Shown: positions 2,591 through 46,222 of the stretch, piece after piece
How positions within the stretch are numbered: the first letter of the stretch is position 1
How the letters are laid out: every line of letters begins with the position of its first letter
Source of the DNA: a virus
Length of the DNA: 64,000 bases
Virus record (IMG/VR): IMGVR_UViG_3300042863_000390
Span: 2,286 to 66,285 of that record
Reading direction: 5' to 3' (one strand)
Translations under genes and position numbers: made by a program
The notes under the pieces: generated by a model
The model's input: only the letters and a program-made list of their open reading frames with translations
What the model was told of the DNA's origin: nothing
Database searches by the model: none

Positions 2591-4999
2591 ATGATTTATA
2601 CAAACACTAATAGTTCTTTCCCTACCCAAGTAGTATCAGATGAAGAAAAGCAAAGTCTTGAATATGGAATTCTAGTTGCTAGGGCTATTGAAAACGAATG
2701 GTTTCGTGGAGATAGAGTTGGAGCTGGAACCGGTAATAGATGGGGGTCAAATTGGCAAAACTTTCACAATTTACGTTTATATGCAAGAGGTGAACAATCT
2801 GTACAAAAATACAAAGATGAGTTGTCCGTTAATGGTGACTTATCGTATCTTAATTTAGATTGGAAACCGATTCCTATTATACCTAAGTTCGTAGACATCG
2901 TTGTTAATGGTATATCTAATAAGAACTATGAGATCAAAGCTTATGCCGAAGATCCAGAAGCTGTTCAAGCCAAAACAAAATATGCTGAAGGTATTATAAG
3001 AGATATGATGGCAAAAGACTTATTAGATAGCATCCAATCTAAATTGGGTGTTAATCTATATAATAGTCCAAACCCTAAAGACTTACCTGAAACAAAAGAA
3101 GAATTAGAAATTAAATTGCAATTAGATTACAAACAAGCGATTGAAATTGCAGAAGAAGAAGTAATAAACCAAATATTAGATCGTAATAGATATACTCTAA
3201 TTAATAGAAGACTTAATTATGATTTAACTGTATTAGGTATTGCAGCGGCTAAAACAAACTGGAATGAAGCCAATGGTGTTGTTCTTGAGTATGTTGACCC
3301 TGCTAACCTTGTTTATTCTTATACAGAGGATCCAAACTTCGAAGACATATATTATGTAGGAGAGGTTAAGTCAGTAGCATTAGAGGAGCTTAAAAAAGAA
3401 TTCCCGTATTTAACAGATGATGAATTAAGAGAAATAGAAAAATACCCGGGGAATGCTAATTATACTCGCGACTATTATGGAACTGATACAAATGATAATA
3501 CTGTTCAAGTATTATATTTTGAATATAAAACATATTCTAATCAGGTGTTTAAAATTAAACAAACCGAAAATGGATTAGAAAAAGCGCTTGAAAAACCGGA
3601 TACATTTAATCCGCCAGCCAATGACAATTTTGAAAGAATATCAAGATCAATCGAGGTATTGTATTCAGGCGCAAAAATATTAGGATTTAACAAAATGCTT
3701 AAGTGGGAACTAGCTGAGAATATGACTAGACCACTTGCGGATACTACAAGAGTAGAGATGAATTATACTATCTGTGCTCCTAGAATGTATAAAGGAAGAA
3801 TTGAATCATTAGTAAGCCGTATAACAGGGTTTGCAGATATGATACAATTAACACATTTAAAACTACAACAAGTACTATCAAGAATGGTACCTGATGGAGT
3901 ATTTGTCGATGTTGATGGATTAGCAGAAGTTGATTTGGGTAATGGTACAAACTATAATGCAGCAGAGGCATTAAATATGTATTTCCAAACGGGTAGTATT
4001 GTTGGTAGATCAATGTCTCAAGATGGGGGTCAAAATCCAGGTAAAGTGCCAATCCAGGAATTACAAACATCGTCAGGTAATGCTAAGATAAGTTCTTTAA
4101 TCAGTACTTACCAATATTACTTACAAATGATACGTGATGTAACCGGATTAAACGAAGCAAGAGATGGTAGTACGCCAGATAGAGATGCTTTAGTTGGGTT
4201 ACAGAAAATGGCAGCAGCAAGTTCAAACACTGCAACACGTCACATATTACAATCAAGTTTATTCTTAACATTAAGATTATGTGAGAATATTGCTTTAAGA
4301 ATTAAAGATTCATTAGGATTCCCATTAACTCGTAAAGCACTTATTGAAAGTATATCAGTTTCAAATGTAGAAACATTAAAAGAGATAGAGAATTTAAACT
4401 TGCATGATTTTGGTATCTTCTTAGAATTAGAACCTGAAGAAGAAGATAAAGCACAATTTGAACAAAACATTCAGATTGCTTTACAATCAGGGGGAATTGA
4501 TTTAGAAGATGTAATTGATCTAAGACAAATTAAGAATTTAAAACTAGCTAATCAATCTTTAAAATATAAGAGAAAGAAAAAGTTAGAAAGAGATCAAGCA
4601 AATCAACAAGCAAATATTGCGGCGCAGGGTCAAGCAAATGCACAAGCGTCAGAAGCAGCGGCATTAGCCGAAGTACAAAAGCAACAAGCTTTAGCGCAAA
4701 CTGAGATTCAAATATTACAATCTAAATCTCAATTTGAAATACAAAGAATGCAACAAGAATTAATGCTTGAGAAACAAAGAATGGCAGTTAAGTTTGATTA
4801 CGACATGCAGCTTGCTCAAATGCAATTAGGTGTTGCTCAACAAAAACAAGCTCAAGCAGAAGACCGTAAAGATCAAAGAACAAAGATACAAGCCACACAA
4901 CAATCAGAATTAATAGACCAAAGAAAAAATAATTCATTGCCAAAAGACTTTGAAGGAAGTGAAGATGGATTCGATCTATCACAGTTTGGTCCACAATAA
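2591..4999 (+). CDS. Portal protein
   Basis: 802 aa after terL, PIIPKFVDIVVNG motif, long Q-rich coiled-coil C-terminus typical of podoviral portals. Confidence 0.8.
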   Translation: MIYTNTNSSFPTQVVSDEEKQSLEYGILVARAIENEWFRGDRVGAGTGNRWGSNWQNFHNLRLYARGEQSVQKYKDELSVNGDLSYLNLDWKPIPIIPKFVDIVVNGISNKNYEIKAYAEDPEAVQAKTKYAEGIIRDMMAKDLLDSIQSKLGVNLYNSPNPKDLPETKEELEIKLQLDYKQAIEIAEEEVINQILDRNRYTLINRRLNYDLTVLGIAAAKTNWNEANGVVLEYVDPANLVYSYTEDPNFEDIYYVGEVKSVALEELKKEFPYLTDDELREIEKYPGNANYTRDYYGTDTNDNTVQVLYFEYKTYSNQVFKIKQTENGLEKALEKPDTFNPPANDNFERISRSIEVLYSGAKILGFNKMLKWELAENMTRPLADTTRVEMNYTICAPRMYKGRIESLVSRITGFADMIQLTHLKLQQVLSRMVPDGVFVDVDGLAEVDLGNGTNYNAAEALNMYFQTGSIVGRSMSQDGGQNPGKVPIQELQTSSGNAKISSLISTYQYYLQMIRDVTGLNEARDGSTPDRDALVGLQKMAAASSNTATRHILQSSLFLTLRLCENIALRIKDSLGFPLTRKALIESISVSNVETLKEIENLNLHDFGIFLELEPEEEDKAQFEQNIQIALQSGGIDLEDVIDLRQIKNLKLANQSLKYKRKKKLERDQANQQANIAAQGQANAQASEAAALAEVQKQQALAQTEIQILQSKSQFEIQRMQQELMLEKQRMAVKFDYDMQLAQMQLGVAQQKQAQAEDRKDQRTKIQATQQSELIDQRKNNSLPKDFEGSEDGFDLSQFGPQ

Positions 5000-33480: not shown

Positions 33481-35177
33481 GGCATCAAATCGTTATTAAT
33501 ATTAACAGGTTCGTGAGGTATAAAACAACCGGAAGCTGGATCCCATTTGAAATGACATTCAGCACCATTCTCTCCAAGATTCTGAAACTTACATTTAAGC
33601 ACTTTTACTTTAACGGTTTTATCTTCATAGTTTCTATGAACTAATAATCCGTGATAGGAAGCATCGTACCATTCACCACCACCTTTAATGTTGTACATAG
33701 TAGGCTCTTCAATATTACCCTTAGCATCTTTATACATTTTTGTAGGGTGGGCAACAACCATTACCAGTACATCGTACTTTTTAGCAAAGATTTCAATCTT
33801 ACTTAGATATTCTAATGTATAAACATTAACATCACCTGAAGCATCGTTGTCTCTTACTTTGTTGAATGGATCAATAACTAAGCATTTAATACCTTTACGT
33901 TTAACTAGCTCAGCTCCTTTTCTAAGTACTGAATCTAAAGTATAACGTTCCATATCAATAAAGAAGTAATTGTCGTTAACATGATCGGCAACTTGATTCC
34001 ATTTGTCACTATTAATATCAGCAACAGTAGGCATACCTTGCCAAGTTTTGCGCATTAACTTGTGAGCATGTAAATATGTAGGAGTATTCTCAGGTGATGC
34101 ATATGCAGTCTTCCAACCGTACTTTTCATTATAACCAATAATCATTTGATCTACAAAGTCAGATTTTCCCGAACTAGGGATACCAGTAACAGTAATAAAC
34201 TGGCCAGTATACGTAGAAAAAATACTGTCAAAATTATCCAGGCCAACTTGAAACCCAGGTTTGAAACCGTTTCTAACAAAATCGGTAACCTCATCTTCAA
34301 TGTCTCTAAACGTTGTAACATTTTCAAGTGGAACTGGCTTAGCCCTTGAAATTCTTTGGGATAATGCTTCTTTTCCATATTTTAATAAGTATTCATTTGC
34401 GTCTTTACATTCTTCAAACGATGCTAAGTAACAAATTTCAGATCCTAACCTTCTTACCAGCTCAGCCTGTAAAGCTTGCCCGGCAGAGTCGGAATCAACA
34501 GCAATAATGATTCTATCTTTATCATCAAAATAGTCAATACAATTATCAAGATATTCCAGGTTATTTGTACCCAATGTAGCGCCATTAGGCACAGATATTG
34601 CATTAGTAATTCCAGCCTCATGTAATGCAAGGACATCCATTTCGCCTTCCACAATAACACAATACTCGAAACCAACAATACTATTAATATTATAAAATAC
34701 TTTTTCAGCCCCTTTATAAAGTTTAAAGTTTTTACGCCCATCTCTGTATTTTACATTTGTAAGTTGATCGCCAACATAATAATTAAAGTTGATTACATTT
34801 TCTTGTTTACCTGTTTGAGGCATGAACTCTTGGCCTTCAGTAACGCTAAGCTCGTTTAATGTTTGTTCTGAAATACCACGTGTTGCAAACCATTCAACAA
34901 CTTTTGAGCTTGGAGGAGTGTGTATAGCAACGTCAGGTTTAACGTATACTTTTTCGCTTTTGCCTTTGCGTTGGTATGTATGTAGTTGAAAAGTTTTATT
35001 ACAGTTATGGCAAGTACCTATACCTCGTTCCCAATCGTAAGAGGCACACTTTGCTTTCTCATTCTGAGGTTTTCTATCTGGCGAGCATATTGGACAAATG
35101 CCTTGAGACTTACCTTCTTCAAGCTTGTATTGATTGAATTGGTCAATCAAAAAACCATTTATCTCTATTGTTTGCAT
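33468..35177 (-). CDS. Primase-helicase (T7 gp4/Twinkle-like)
   Basis: Zn finger CPIC...CHNC, TOPRIM VEGEMD/DSD, KDANE, Walker A GIPSSGKS, LVIDP, VAHP. Confidence 0.92.
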   Translation of the reverse strand: MQTIEINGFLIDQFNQYKLEEGKSQGICPICSPDRKPQNEKAKCASYDWERGIGTCHNCNKTFQLHTYQRKGKSEKVYVKPDVAIHTPPSSKVVEWFATRGISEQTLNELSVTEGQEFMPQTGKQENVINFNYYVGDQLTNVKYRDGRKNFKLYKGAEKVFYNINSIVGFEYCVIVEGEMDVLALHEAGITNAISVPNGATLGTNNLEYLDNCIDYFDDKDRIIIAVDSDSAGQALQAELVRRLGSEICYLASFEECKDANEYLLKYGKEALSQRISRAKPVPLENVTTFRDIEDEVTDFVRNGFKPGFQVGLDNFDSIFSTYTGQFITVTGIPSSGKSDFVDQMIIGYNEKYGWKTAYASPENTPTYLHAHKLMRKTWQGMPTVADINSDKWNQVADHVNDNYFFIDMERYTLDSVLRKGAELVKRKGIKCLVIDPFNKVRDNDASGDVNVYTLEYLSKIEIFAKKYDVLVMVVAHPTKMYKDAKGNIEEPTMYNIKGGGEWYDASYHGLLVHRNYEDKTVKVKVLKCKFQNLGENGAECHFKWDPASGCFIPHEPVNINNDLMPWEK

Positions 35178-39574: not shown

Positions 39575-39772
39575 TTATTTATTATCTTGTTCTATTAACT
39601 GGAATATATAACTCCACACTTTAACTTCACGTTTATGTGATTCAATCATATCTTTTACTGTATCGCTGCTTATGCCCCAATTGACATACTTATCCATATC
39701 TTCACGTAATAATACCTGAAGTTTAGATCCAATTTTGTTACTCGCTAATTCATTTAATTCTTCTCTTGTCAT
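39575..39772 (-). CDS. Hypothetical protein
   Basis: 65-aa ORF. Confidence 0.55.
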   Translation of the reverse strand: MTREELNELASNKIGSKLQVLLREDMDKYVNWGISSDTVKDMIESHKREVKVWSYIFQLIEQDNK

Positions 39773-40248
39773 AATATTGCAGGTCTTGTTATTATAGATT
39801 CGTTTGCATTTTTTACATTAACTTTTTCAGCTTCATAATAATTCCAGTATGCTTCAACACTATTGCCAGGAACTTTGTATTGATCGGGCATGCATTGTGG
39901 CATTGGAGTTAATTCAGATTTAGTTACATTAGTTGGTACTTTACTTAGTACGCCACTACATTTTAATATTGTTAAATGTTTTTTGCCGTAACGTCTAGTA
40001 TATTCTTCACCAAGCGCCATCATATGATCATATAACCATTTGTAATTAGACTTTGATTCACGTGCCCATATGGCAGAAGGATGGTTTTTGTGAGTAACTT
40101 TATAAGGTACGTCAGCATCAGGACCGTCAGATATTACATGAGCGGTACATAATAATTGTGCGGATTCTAAGATCATCTTTACTACATGCTTGTTATACAT
40201 GTACTTAGCGGCTTTTGTAGGATCTGTAGACAGATAAAATATATTCAT
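39769..40248 (-). CDS. Pyrimidine-dimer DNA glycosylase (DenV/endonuclease V-like)
   Basis: MNIFYL..DP, KHVVKMILESAQLLCTAH, HKNHPSAIW, EY..RYGK.H. Confidence 0.8.
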   Translation of the reverse strand: MNIFYLSTDPTKAAKYMYNKHVVKMILESAQLLCTAHVISDGPDADVPYKVTHKNHPSAIWARESKSNYKWLYDHMMALGEEYTRRYGKKHLTILKCSGVLSKVPTNVTKSELTPMPQCMPDQYKVPGNSVEAYWNYYEAEKVNVKNANESIITRPAIL

Positions 40249-40263
40249 AATTTGATTTGATTG

Positions 40264-40307
40264 GTTACATTAATATTATCATTCTTTAATCGTGTTTAGA
40301 CTGTAAG
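40264..40307 (-). promoter_or_regulatory. Class-I 44-bp promoter-like motif, copy 2
   Basis: Same consensus and spacing; upstream of DenV-like/HTH/sigma operon. Confidence 0.7.
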
Positions 40308-40431
40308 CAGCTAATCTTTTATAATGCTTATGTAAACGGTTGTCTCTACAATAAGAGCATGCTCCATTGTTTCTGCATGTTTTATCAAACACTCTTGATT
40401 TTCTGTACGCTTGTTTTACTGTTCTGCTCAT
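40279..40431 (-). CDS. Small basic Cys-rich protein (50 aa, not in ORF track)
   Basis: MSRTVKQAYRKSRVFDKTCRNNGACSYCRDNRLHKHYKRLAAYSLNTIKE, translated by hand. Confidence 0.6.
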   Translation of the reverse strand: MSRTVKQAYRKSRVFDKTCRNNGACSYCRDNRLHKHYKRLAAYSLNTIKE

Positions 40432-40445
40432 AATCTTTAATTTAG

Positions 40446-40511
40446 TAGTCAGGCAAGGACTCGAACCTCCTCCGCTTTATCAGTGCGGTGCTTCCATTCA
40501 GCTACCTGACT
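40446..40511 (-). tRNA. Truncated tRNA-like element (Ile-GAT-like loop)
   Basis: Acceptor AGTCAGG/CCTGACT+A, T-loop GGTTCGAGTCC, loop CTGATAA; only 66 nt, variable loop almost absent. Confidence 0.55.
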
Positions 40512-40578
40512 TATAGTTAATTACCACCACTAAGCGTGTAACTGGGTGGATTACTGAACTCACGCCTTATTAACTATA
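40512..40578 (-). ncRNA. Predicted pseudoknotted small RNA (RNA-C)
   Basis: Outer stem TATAGTTAAT/ATTAACTATA, inner stem AGGCGTG/CACGCTT, loop CCACC complementary to downstream GGTGG. Confidence 0.5.
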
Positions 40579-40584
40579 TATATT

Positions 40585-40675
40585 TGGAACTAAAAGGGGA
40601 ATCGAACCCCAAAACCCGTCGGTTGTGACAATGCCCGGAGACTGAAACAGATCCATTTAGCCCAGCACTTAGTTC
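40585..40675 (-). ncRNA. tRNA-like element with non-canonical central part
   Basis: Acceptor GAACTAA/TTAGTTC, T-arm GGGG-TTCGATT-CCCC, 3' end TTCCA; no canonical anticodon arm. Confidence 0.5.
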
Positions 40676-40676
40676 T

Positions 40677-40774
40677 TGTTAATCCGAGGACCGGTTATTT
40701 TCTTTATCCCATATTTCGGTTGCAACCAGCTAGCTAAGCTTGGTATGACTCCACGCAACCCCGAGTGATTAACA
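40677..40774 (-). ncRNA. Predicted multi-stem small RNA (RNA-B)
   Basis: Closing stem TGTTAATC..CGGGG/CCTCG-GATTAACA; inner GCTGGTT/AACCGGT and TGG/CCA hairpins. Confidence 0.45.
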
Positions 40775-40782
40775 TTTTGAAC

Positions 40783-40873
40783 AGTTCTTATTTAACGAAC
40801 TCACTGCTCCCTGAGTCGAACACGATTGCCAGCTGCTCGAGCACTACATGCATGAACAACCGTGTATAGCAAC
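40783..40873 (-). ncRNA. Predicted structured small RNA (RNA-A)
   Basis: ACACGGTTG/CAATCGTGT stem, ACTCA/TGAGT hairpin whose loop GAGCA can pair with TGCTC, AGTTC/GAACT hairpin. Confidence 0.45.
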
Positions 40874-41100
40874 TACAGTTTCTTAAATCTGTATTGAGCT
40901 AATACGTATTTGTTTAAGAATTTACCTTTAGAAGGGGCTTCTCTTAAACCATTCATTACATGGTTAGGTACGTTTAAATATTCGTACGCTTTACCGCTAA
41001 TGAATAGAACAATTAATTTTTCAACACTTGGATAGTAAGCGACTTCAGAAATTGCGCTACTGTCAACCGTTAGTGATTCCACTAAGTTTACATTTGTCAT
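40873..41100 (-). CDS. KTSC domain protein
   Basis: VDSSAISEVAY...LIVLF.SG..YEY..VP........APSKGKF.N. Confidence 0.85.
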   Translation of the reverse strand: MTNVNLVESLTVDSSAISEVAYYPSVEKLIVLFISGKAYEYLNVPNHVMNGLREAPSKGKFLNKYVLAQYRFKKL

Positions 41101-41110
41101 AGTTATTATA

Positions 41111-41443
41111 TTAGATAGTTAAAAAATATTCTTCATCAAATTTATCTTTGAAACCTACATGCTTGATACCGTATACTAATATATCAAATTGATCAGAGCT
41201 AATAGGTATGCATTCTTGTTCAAATACAGAACATAAATTTTCTACAGTAGCCACAACATTACTTAATAATTTATAATTAGTTTCAAGTTCAGCAACAATG
41301 GTAGGCTCAATCAAATCATGATAGCTACCGCTGCTTTCTGTTAATTGTAATAATGTATAACCACGTAGGTTTTTTAGATAATCCATTACTTCTTGGGCTG
41401 AATAAGGATTGTTAAGCAGCCCGATATTGATTGTAAAAGTCAT
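41111..41443 (-). CDS. Hypothetical early protein
   Basis: 110-aa ORF; INIGL, EPT.V, QECI motifs. Confidence 0.6.
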   Translation of the reverse strand: MTFTINIGLLNNPYSAQEVMDYLKNLRGYTLLQLTESSGSYHDLIEPTIVAELETNYKLLSNVVATVENLCSVFEQECIPISSDQFDILVYGIKHVGFKDKFDEEYFLTI

Positions 41444-42123: not shown

Positions 42124-42320
42124 ATTCCATTTTCTTCAACAACTTCGCAGAATAAGGTGTATAGCAAACTTTCTATTTGCTGCAATCTATGTAATTGATG
42201 TACGGTTAAAAGCGATCTTTCTATTCTAAAATCCGTATTTAGGTTTTCTTCAATTGTTAATGTTCCTTCAAAGACTGCTAGCTTAATTAAGTCTAGTTCT
42301 TTATCGCTTAGTACTCTCAT
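42099..42320 (-). CDS. Hypothetical early protein
   Basis: 73-aa ORF. Confidence 0.5.
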   Translation of the reverse strand: MRVLSDKELDLIKLAVFEGTLTIEENLNTDFRIERSLLTVHQLHRLQQIESLLYTLFCEVVEENGILQSEYDQ

Positions 42321-42776: not shown

Positions 42777-42995
42777 CTACTCAATTACCTTCATAAAATC
42801 ACCATTTTTATTATATAATATGGTTAATTCAAACTTATGGTCTAGGTGACATATCATTTCGTTGATGTTAGCAAATGATAAGGCCATTGAGAATTGATCA
42901 GGAGCGGCGGTTAAACCTTCCGCTTGAGCAAGCGTGTATAGCAAACCGACGTCGAGTTGGTTACTATTACGCATTTTAATATACTCTGCTTTCAT
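42777..42995 (-). CDS. Hypothetical early protein
   Basis: 72-aa ORF. Confidence 0.6.
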   Translation of the reverse strand: MKAEYIKMRNSNQLDVGLLYTLAQAEGLTAAPDQFSMALSFANINEMICHLDHKFELTILYNKNGDFMKVIE

Positions 42996-43621: not shown

Positions 43622-43804
43622 TTACTTTTTGATTATATAAGTTAAACCTTTAAAATTAAACCACTCACTTGTGCCGTCGGATTCTTTATTAGCATCGTAG
43701 ATAAAACCAAAACTTGGGGGTAGATCGCCGATTAAGTAAGGTGTGTATAGCAAACCGTTTAATAAGATTTGATTGTACTTTAGGAATTTAATTGAATTTG
43801 TCAT
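43622..43804 (-). CDS. Hypothetical early protein
   Basis: 60-aa ORF after promoter copy 5. Confidence 0.6.
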   Translation of the reverse strand: MTNSIKFLKYNQILLNGLLYTPYLIGDLPPSFGFIYDANKESDGTSEWFNFKGLTYIIKK

Positions 43805-43870: not shown

Positions 43871-43942
43871 TAGTTAGGGTAGGAATCGAACCTACATTGC
43901 GGGCGCCTGATCGGCCTGAGTTTACCATTACTCCTCCTAACT
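43871..43942 (-). tRNA. tRNA-like element with defective anticodon arm
   Basis: Acceptor AGTTAGG/CCTAACT+A, D-arm GAGT-AATGGTAA-ACTC, T-arm GTAGG-TTCGATT-CCTAC; positions 27-43 do not form a canonical stem-loop. Confidence 0.6.
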
Positions 43943-45247: not shown

Positions 45248-45314
45248 GGGTTTTTAGGTGGATGCTATACGCGTTGCTATACACTTTGTGTAAGGTTCCG
45301 ATGGAACACTTTGT

Positions 45315-46133: not shown

Positions 46134-46222
46134 TGCTATACGCAAATGCTATACATTTGCTATACGCTTCGCGTGTTACCACGCTCCACGTATCGGTCTC
46201 CATACGCATCACGTATCGGTTC
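46134..46222 (+). repeat. TGCTATAC x3 and CACGTATCGGT x2 short direct repeats
   Basis: Seen at 46134, 46147, 46158; CACGTATCGGT twice within 46187-46222. Confidence 0.8.

Follow-up and report, generated by a model that had tools for sequence, protein, structure and literature searches.

A conserved modular array of structured RNAs and tRNA-shaped elements in the genome of an uncultured phage

Does a stretch of about 430 nt that follows the gene for a KTSC-domain protein in a phage genome, and that contains no convincing open reading frame (ORF), code for RNAs that function as such, and if so how might these RNAs be released? The stretch, which we call the island (441 nt), lies on the minus strand of IMG/VR virus record IMGVR_UViG_3300042863_000390, a record of 66,285 bp with direct terminal repeats. 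We analyzed a window of 64,000 nt (positions 2,286 to 66,285 of the record), and coordinates given without a locus name are those of this window. The phage is probably a freshwater phage of Flavobacteriia because its primase-helicase is closest to that of Cellulophaga phage phi10:1 (41.8% identity), followed by those of Tenacibaculum and Flavobacterium phages, and because the DNA runs that contain the stretch are lake and freshwater metagenomes. An earlier reading made from the DNA letters alone (the sequence-only reading) had described a KTSC gene followed by ORF-free, GC-richer DNA tiled by five folding units, termed RNA-A, RNA-B, tRNA-like 1, RNA-C and tRNA-like 2. The Pfam match of the KTSC protein, an ORF scan and GC windows all agree with the first part of this description. 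Specifically, minus strand 40872-40446, between the KTSC stop and the next ORF (40431..40279), holds no ORF of at least 30 aa, the plus strand of the region has only ORFs of 49, 30 and 34 aa, and GC content is 0.385-0.44 in 200-nt windows within 40300-40999 versus 0.25-0.34 in most flanking windows. No terminator-like site was found on the minus strand in the island region.

We conclude from conservation, compensatory base changes and module-wise reshuffling in related phage contigs that the modules of the island are genuine and operate as RNA. Relatives were gathered through the KTSC protein (11 loci) and through the downstream gene (68 loci), and a further 15 viral and 45 metagenome stretches came from pattern scans; individual loci are designated by L and a number. 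As revealed by blastn, the island is shared piecewise among these relatives with breakpoints at the unit borders. The five folding units all hold, with ends that are 0-4 nt from where they had first been placed. Counts on homologous loci gave compensatory change in RNA-B, RNA-C, tRNA-like 1 (hereafter TLE1) and the two hairpins, M1 and M2, that make up RNA-A. The arrangement as a whole, an array on one strand in which structured RNAs and two tRNA-shaped elements are interspersed, is likewise conserved. The features are collected in Table 1.

Table 1. Features of the island and its flanks, in minus-strand order
Feature	Coordinates	Strand	Remarks
KTSC-domain protein gene, 75 aa	40873..41100	-	Pfam PF13619, E 1.1e-14, 54.3 bits
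Start motif GTTGCTATACAC	40862..40873	-	Opens island; overlaps KTSC stop codon and M1 5' strand
M1 hairpin (RNA-A first half)	40820..40865	-	9-bp closing stem, variable apex
M2 hairpin (RNA-A second half)	40779..40809	-	7-bp stem, conserved 17-nt loop
RNA-B, three-way junction (P1, P2 with P3, P4)	40678..40773	-	Alignment of relatives
TLE1, anticodon-less tRNA-shaped RNA	40586..40675	-	47 distinct sequences
RNA-C, 10-bp clamp around H-type pseudoknot	40512..40578	-	6 distinct sequences
RNA-C stem S1	40567-40561 with 40538-40532	-	
RNA-C stem S2	40549-40545 with 40528-40524	-	
tRNA-like 2, 66-nt non-canonical tRNA	40446..40511	-	Rfam RF00005
SM50, gene for basic Cys-rich 50-aa protein	40279..40431	-	Starts 14 nt after tRNA-like 2
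Repeated promoter-like element	40255..40307	-	Closes unit, before Pyr_excise-like gene
Pyr_excise-like gene	40248..39769	-	PF03013, phrog_624

The architecture was compared at the 17 distinct TLE1 loci of IMG/VR. Their order runs from the start motif through variable, mostly collinear hairpin modules to RNA-B (15 of 17) and TLE1, after which an anticodon-loop hairpin, a large RNA, RNA-C and tRNA-like 2 are optional. Then come the SM50 gene (9 of 17), the promoter-like element and the Pyr_excise-like gene. The element immediately upstream of TLE1 is RNA-B, at 2-4 nt, in 15 of these loci and a hairpin in the other two (L012 and L083), while in L042 RNA-B stands directly before a tRNA-like of the AGUCAGG type described below. 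Overall, structured modules in the relatives are nearly always followed by a tRNA-shaped element at a distance of 0-4 nt, and the gaps in the tiling of the island itself are 0-7 nt. Since RNA-B is always found 2-4 nt before a tRNA-like 5' end, L042 included, we take the recurring unit to be a dyad that consists of a folded module followed by a tRNA-shaped element. The sequence-only reading had the closing stems of RNA-B and RNA-C ending 1 nt and 0 nt before the next acceptor stem. The value for RNA-C stands and that for RNA-B is corrected to a linker of 2 nt (AA, 40677-40676). The flush spacing itself is kept in relatives even where modules are exchanged, with RNA-B ending 2-4 A-rich nt before the tRNA-like 5' end in 15 of 15 aligned copies.

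The same neighborhood carries further genes of the tRNA type. Rfam identifies transfer-messenger RNA (tmRNA) genes in L029 (2619-2935, 84.7 bits) and L013 (942-1297, 77.4 bits), and a tRNA-Gln gene is present just before KTSC in L007 and L009. Together with a tRNA of anticodon UUA in L011, these indicate that the site is a slot for tRNA-type genes. The L029 tmRNA is also called by ARAGORN, has a long tag ending ...LIAA and lies just upstream of the Pyr_excise-like gene, and that of L013 is located after a 145-aa gene.

TLE1 is represented by 17 distinct copies in IMG/VR and by 47 when metagenomes are added. The explicit pattern used to collect them excluded GC-rich matches that do not belong to the family (L120, L122) as well as truncated copies such as L109. 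The unconstrained minimum free energy (MFE) fold is a cloverleaf-like four-way junction, and at least six acceptor pairs form in 47 of 47. The 7-bp acceptor stem GAACUAA/UUAGUUC, which lay outside the search pattern, is fixed in 45 of 47 and is constant among phages whose flanking proteins share only 54-94% identity; its variants are two with a compensatory A-U to G-C change and two with G3-U70. The discriminator is C without a conserved encoded CCA, the next base being A in 30 copies and U in 17. The T arm, [A/U]GGGG-UUCGAUU-CCCC[U] with loop UUCGAUU, forms a normal 7+5 stack with the acceptor, and a 4-bp hairpin with a GACG loop is present at the anticodon-arm position. The D-like arm is hypervariable (12-50 nt) and contains GG. 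Its closing pairs covary (UA 35 / CG 7; GC 18 / AU 17), and an A/U-G-G triplet was read after them in nearly every arm listed. Lacking an anticodon, TLE1 cannot decode. Its acceptor stem is far more constant than its D-like arm, which suggests that TLE1 is probably itself a functional product and engages a tRNA-binding partner, beyond being a mere cutting signal.

Two other identities for TLE1 were considered and rejected. One is a 13-bp tRNA-Sec-like stack, where a recount gave the canonical 7+5 with A-U or U-U as the first T-stem pair. The best Rfam match of TLE1 is to tRNA-Sec at 15.1 bits (E 7.9), and RF00005 gives no match at E up to 10. The other is a copied 3' half of a host tRNA that would serve as an attachment site. 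The exact 25-mer of the TLE1 3' half is absent from 185,579 species (one genome each), and a degenerate T-arm/acceptor/discriminator pattern matches only three unrelated metagenome-assembled genomes (MAGs). As a separate observation, L020 has a further tRNA-shaped element after TLE1 (~2840-2935) with an 8-bp stem GUCGAGAU/AUCUCGAC and a T arm.

Evidence for base pairing is most extensive for RNA-B, for which 15 distinct copies were aligned and the structure was derived with RNAalifold plus pair counts. Paired cells amount to 97.4%, versus 13-47% in controls with slid partners, and 9 of 18 pairs have changed on both sides versus a shuffled mean of 4.3, with 0 of 500 shuffles as good. Both-side changes occur in 4 pairs of P1 (7 bp) and in 5 pairs of P2 (7 bp; 105 of 105 cells paired), and P4 shows compensatory change in 5 of 7 anchored layers. 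Single-sequence MFE folding jointly recovers P1, P2 and P4 in 9 of the 15 copies. Column 28-58 is an invariant G-U (15 of 15), as is pair 3 of the M2 hairpin (5 of 5). These pairs would be C-A on the other strand, which indicates that the minus strand is the RNA strand. RNA-B may also form a pseudoknot between the CCGG loop of P4 and J1/2, for which 60 of 60 cells are compatible and covariation is none.

The two hairpins of RNA-A were analyzed from smaller sets. For M1, 5 of 9 closing pairs have changed on both sides among 17 distinct instances, a count biased towards pairing as the instances were pre-filtered to at least 8 of 9 pairs; the apex varies among relatives. For M2, 34 of 35 cells are paired and 2 of 7 pairs are compensatory (5 distinct sequences), and the module occurs in 17 distinct contexts. 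Note that the M1 variants of L085 and L089 include the T-loop motif GGTTCGAGTCC, and that the 3' arm of M2, AAGAACUGU (40779-40809), almost repeats the TLE1 5' strand AAGAACUAAGU. This arm may pair with the TLE1 3' strand in an alternative fold, or may be the trace of a duplication.

RNA-C was compared in 6 sequences. Its clamp was read straight off the sequence, and within it S1 has 38 of 42 cells paired with 2 of 7 pairs compensatory, and S2 has 30 of 30 cells paired with 1 of 5 compensatory. The RNA-C core is also a sub-domain of a larger conserved RNA in L089 and L097-L106. By eye, this ornate RNA extends over ~300 nt or more (L007 ~3700-3985, L008 ~2400-2650, L089 ~2230-2560, and L097-L106), and combines the RNA-C pseudoknot with a GAGA tetraloop hairpin and a 7-bp helix (GUGUUGU/ACAACAC), ending in ...GGGUGCUAAA. 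For the copy in L007, Rfam gives no match at E up to 10.

Of the two elements that had been called tRNA-like, tRNA-like 2 passes RF00005 (45.9 bits, gathering cut-off 29; E 1.4e-6 for the window), while ARAGORN calls neither it nor TLE1. It has the anticodon loop CUGAUAA (GAU, Ile-type) and discriminator A. Its variable loop is 1-2 nt and its anticodon stem contains an A-A mismatch, such that it lacks the paired anticodon stem, the variable loop of at least 4 nt and the gene-finder call of a canonical decoding tRNA. The slot that it occupies before the 50-aa gene keeps the acceptor stem AGUCAGG/CCUGACU-A across differing elements in the relatives. In L011 (3332-3401) the slot holds, with this same acceptor stem, a tRNA called by ARAGORN whose anticodon UUA would read the UAA stop; in L009 and L042 it holds tRNA-likes of 124 and 132 nt; and in 14 of the 17 TLE1 islands tRNA-like 2 is wholly missing. 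In the L008 copy of tRNA-like 2 the T stem is a perfect 5 bp.

The loop of tRNA-like 2, ACUGAUAAA, also recurs on free-standing hairpins with other stems in L009 and in a second L007 copy, and an L007 hairpin downstream of TLE1 has the loop variant UCUGAUAAA (hairpin positions: L009 ~3726-3750 and ~4406; L007 ~3646 and ~4511). The presence of this loop, that of a tRNA-Ile (GAU) anticodon, on free-standing hairpins with different stems suggests that the loop itself is under selection. Separately, a third tRNA-shaped gene is located at 43871-43942 on the minus strand of the window. It scores 40.1 bits in Rfam, its acceptor AGUUAGG/CCUAACU-A is almost that of tRNA-like 2, and ARAGORN assigns it an 'anticodon' of two bases.

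How does this locus relate to what has been described in other phages? Small stable RNAs beside the tRNA genes of phages T4 and T5 have been known for decades. In T4, RNA C and RNA D (species 1 and 2) are small stable RNAs that are co-transcribed and co-processed with phage tRNAs, in a cluster that has eight working tRNAs. The nearest known parallel is offered by the tRNA region of T5, where RefSeq NC_005859 annotates RNA1 and RNA2 as 'tRNA-like stable RNA with unknown functions' and RNA3 as 'putative tRNA-like RNA' in addition to RNAI, RNAIII and RNAIV. RNA1, RNAI, RNAIII and tRNA-His are tiled there with gaps of 0, 4 and 0 nt, and RNA1 and RNA2 fold into an acceptor stem and T arm around an enlarged middle. 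T5 and the island thus share phage-encoded non-coding RNAs that are flush with tRNA or tRNA-like genes, some of which have acceptor and T arms without an anticodon. There are several differences, however. The two show no sequence likeness in a comparison made by eye only. In T5, these RNAs are surrounded by many canonical tRNAs, while this phage lacks canonical tRNAs altogether. In the island, a fixed 4-bp tetraloop hairpin stands in for the anticodon arm, the D-like arm carries the variable insert, and the accompanying modules, a three-way junction and a pseudoknot, are exchanged from phage to phage.

Phage loci of this type have long been known, whereas the RNA families within the island are new. 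Rfam 15 at the gathering threshold gave only two tRNA matches in the window. Relaxing the limit to E up to 10 over 40200-41200 gave, apart from tRNA-like 2, chance-level matches only, and blastn of 1001 nt against 50,697 phage records gave no match. The families are also not described in the literature searched, which did not cover the supplementary tables of PMC10690425; this study reports 10,006 candidate viral RNAs from IMG/VR, and its tables may include these motifs.

TLE1 also bears comparison with tmRNA (RF00023), which has a tRNA-like domain without an anticodon and adds pseudoknots, and the tmRNA 5' consensus is echoed by CUGG...CGACGGG in TLE1. However, RF00023 gave no match in 40200-41200 at E up to 10 with the same tools that find the L029 and L013 tmRNAs. 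Furthermore, the TLE1 acceptor strands are 60-97 nt apart with no large domain between them, there is no tag reading frame, and G3-U70 occurs in just 2 of 47 copies. A separate observation concerns M5, a hairpin module of L008, L009, L010 and L020 that is absent from the window. It contains GA(C/U) GAA (C/G)AA CGC GCC UAA in one frame with synonymous or conservative changes, and may represent a very short reading frame that resembles a tmRNA tag. YrlA (RF02553), a bacterial and phage Y-RNA-like, mimics the acceptor, T and D region of a tRNA without an anticodon; it gave no match in the window, and the L007 value is 16.1 bits (E 2.4, cut-off 69). Finally, GOLLD and ROOL, which an excerpt of PMC5737381 describes as ornate RNAs that are often found in prophages and near tRNAs, gave no Rfam match and are both much larger than the island modules.

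Turning to how the RNAs might be released, the sequence-only reading had proposed that the tRNA mimics act as processing punctuation. RNase P and RNase Z require only the acceptor/T-arm shape, and in the MALAT1/mascRNA arrangement a tRNA-like serves these two enzymes as a cutting signal. Such a layout has precedent both in the T5 tiling and in plant mitochondrial t-elements, which an excerpt of PMC1920247 describes as non-canonical cloverleaves with a conserved T arm that are cut by RNase P and RNase Z, that define the ends of neighboring transcripts and that can persist as stable RNAs with an added C or CA. TLE1 and tRNA-like 2 share with the t-elements a non-canonical cloverleaf and a GGTTCRANYCC-like T arm (GGGGTTCGATTCCCC and AGGTTCGAGTCCT, respectively). 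The difference is that t-elements and MALAT1/mascRNA work on mRNAs and long RNAs of organelles or the nucleus, whereas the neighbors in the island are small structured phage RNAs known here from sequence.

The reading that we favor, and consider rather likely, is that the island is a conserved array of RNA dyads of the same kind as the T5 and T4 stable RNAs, and that its tRNA-shaped elements are processed by the tRNA-maturation enzymes of the host. In this scheme the island, which sits in the early gene row on the minus strand, would be co-transcribed with the flanking genes. The host tRNA-maturation enzymes would recognize the acceptor/T-arm shape, RNase P cutting at the 5' borders of the tRNA-shaped elements and RNase Z together with CCA addition acting at the 3' borders. 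Processing would free stable small RNAs and would also trim the message for the downstream 50-aa protein. Such processing of the island by RNase P and RNase Z is plausible.

Contigs that contain parts of the island were also observed in four freshwater RNA libraries from four studies. These are assembled contigs, which cannot show RNA ends, and they indicate presence only, with DNA carry-over possible. Contig ends at the module borders 40677, 40586 and 40777 are equally expected from assembly breaks where co-occurring phages differ and were not used, and neither were the stretches left uncovered in X20-X22. The word depth of these libraries, which is above the flanks at 40598-40825 in three of four runs, was also left unused because contig depth cannot rank genes and because conserved modules gather the contigs of several relatives.

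Several observations weigh against the dyad-processing reading. One RNA-library contig (X19 record 5, 40586-40728) reaches across the border of RNA-B and TLE1 by >31 nt in both directions, which fits an uncut precursor or DNA. The RNA-C clamp that abuts tRNA-like 2 is an unusual RNase P substrate since no single-stranded leader lies between them, and the L-shape of tRNA-like 2 is itself uncertain because a normal variable loop is missing. In TLE1, U-U is found as the first T-stem pair both in the window and among 18 of 47 members, and the constancy of the GACG hairpin and T arm comes partly from the search pattern, which contained both. The folding energies of the units are unexceptional (z = -0.67 to -2.61, the latter for tRNA-like 2) and the 441-nt island, at z = -0.75 versus shuffles, folds no better than chance. 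As energy alone does not set the units apart from shuffles, it was dropped as support for the modules. Finally, the host and its enzymes are inferred solely from the 42% identity of the primase-helicase to that of phi10:1.

The main rival is that the dyads remain uncut, each being one mature RNA that keeps the tRNA-like 3' end as a handle for CCA gain, exonuclease resistance or protein docking, comparable to the tRNA-like structures at the 3' ends of plant RNA viruses or to the tRNA-like domain and pseudoknots of tmRNA. This explanation would account for TLE1 being constant at the 3' side of the variable, collinear modules M5, M3, M4, M2 and RNA-B, for linkers of merely 0-4 nt, and for the RNA-library contig that covers both RNA-B and TLE1, and it has true tmRNA genes in the same neighborhood (L029 and L013) as a parallel. 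However, that contig is possibly DNA or precursor, 5' borders of tRNA shape are commonplace RNase P sites in bacteria, and the flush neighbors in T5 are annotated as separate stable RNAs. In addition, TLE1 occurs with a hairpin alone upstream in L012 and L083, which indicates that TLE1 does not need RNA-B. We therefore regard retention of the 3' handle as possible, with the odds clearly against it.

A second rival assigns function to tRNA-like 2 only, as a working compact tRNA-Ile (GAU) that aids host decoding, with the remainder of the island being leader or spacer RNA without a function. A decoding role is indeed conceivable for tRNA-like 2, and only for it, given the 45.9-bit match, the 7-nt loop CUGAUAA, discriminator A and the perfect 5-bp T stem of the L008 copy. 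The tRNA called by ARAGORN in the L011 slot and the canonical tRNA-Gln of relatives also point in this direction. Set against this are the variable loop of 1-2 nt, the A-A mismatch in the anticodon stem and the rejection by ARAGORN, as well as the non-decoding forms of 124 and 132 nt that occupy the slot in L009 and L042. The upstream modules also covary, and their conservation does not depend on tRNA-like 2, which 14 of 17 TLE1 islands lack. This explanation is, in our view, also unlikely.

A role for the upstream gene product fares considerably worse. The sequence-only reading had suggested that the island RNAs might be bound by the KTSC protein and could serve, for instance, as anti-defence decoys or regulators, and the corresponding rival is that they form a ribonucleoprotein with it. 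KTSC is the upstream gene in 11 of the 17 TLE1 loci, and an excerpt of PMC8541194 quotes Pfam family text in which KTSC is postulated to bind RNA, the domain being found at the end of some lysyl-tRNA synthetases. However, an excerpt of PMC9503650 calls the domain DNA-binding, so the nucleic-acid binding that had been taken as established is a prediction on which the sources differ. Furthermore, an unrelated gene of ~148 aa and unknown family takes the KTSC position in five of the 17 loci (one more is truncated), and a whole-record search for KTSC gave no match in five records that bear TLE1 and RNA-B, three of them 96-100% complete. This result indicates that the RNAs do not depend on KTSC, and we consider such a ribonucleoprotein improbable. 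The weakest proposal, that the island consists of decayed tRNA or tmRNA genes or is a DNA-level element (an attachment site or origin) without any RNA function, draws on the non-canonical form of all three tRNA-like elements of this genome, on the intact tmRNA and tRNA genes at the locus in relatives and on the TLE1 3' half being the best conserved piece, like the core of an attachment site, but is scarcely credible given the compensatory changes and strand-specific G-U pairs, the absence of the exact TLE1 25-mer from the cellular genomes searched (the degenerate pattern matching only the three unrelated MAGs), the invariance of the TLE1 acceptor stem among phages with diverged flanking proteins and the direct terminal repeats of the phage record.

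We also considered a broader reading that goes beyond processing, which we put forward as a doubtful but worthwhile speculation. TLE1 could be the constant chassis of a modular RNA system in phages, in which the handle would recruit host tRNA-maturation and tRNA-binding machinery and a swapped cargo would titrate or redirect host translation factors or tRNA-targeting defence factors, a tmRNA-like principle that would have evolved separately. The cargo, as part of this same joint claim, would consist of the D-arm inserts, RNA-B, the RNA-C pseudoknot and the hairpins that copy the tRNA-Ile anticodon loop.

The locus thus adds to the stable RNAs of phage tRNA regions an example from uncultured freshwater phages that is compact, well conserved and highly modular, and in which one tRNA-shaped element alone keeps an anticodon loop. 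It is also a hot spot where relatives place a tmRNA, a UUA-anticodon tRNA or long tRNA-likes. Handles for experiment are provided by the invariant TLE1 acceptor, which matches no cellular tRNA found, by the hypervariable D-arm insert, and by RNA-B and RNA-C as covarying companion folds that are absent from Rfam 15. If the tRNA-shaped elements do direct processing, the island would be a bacterial-virus counterpart of the mitochondrial t-elements and of engineered tRNA-spaced RNA arrays.

Additional observations concern the borders of the unit. The SM50 protein has 26 homologues, none of which has a Pfam domain or a functional name. The motif that opens the island has 13 matches in the window at up to two mismatches versus 5.5 expected (0 of 100 shuffles), and most relatives have its core at or near the island start, while in L029 the core lies past the 3' end of the tmRNA. 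Copies of the form (G/T)TTGCTATACAC include those at 34920-34931(-), 42157-42168(-), 42934-42945(-), 43743-43754(-), 45273-45284(+) and 46134-46167(+). Copies with no or one mismatch are mostly on the same strand as the overlapping called ORFs or the island, and some copies are within ORFs and some in tandem. The promoter-like element that closes the unit is ~50 nt long (...ACAGTCTAAACACGA...GATAATATTAATGTAAC...), is found before many gene starts, and is present by blastn in 2-6 copies per related locus.

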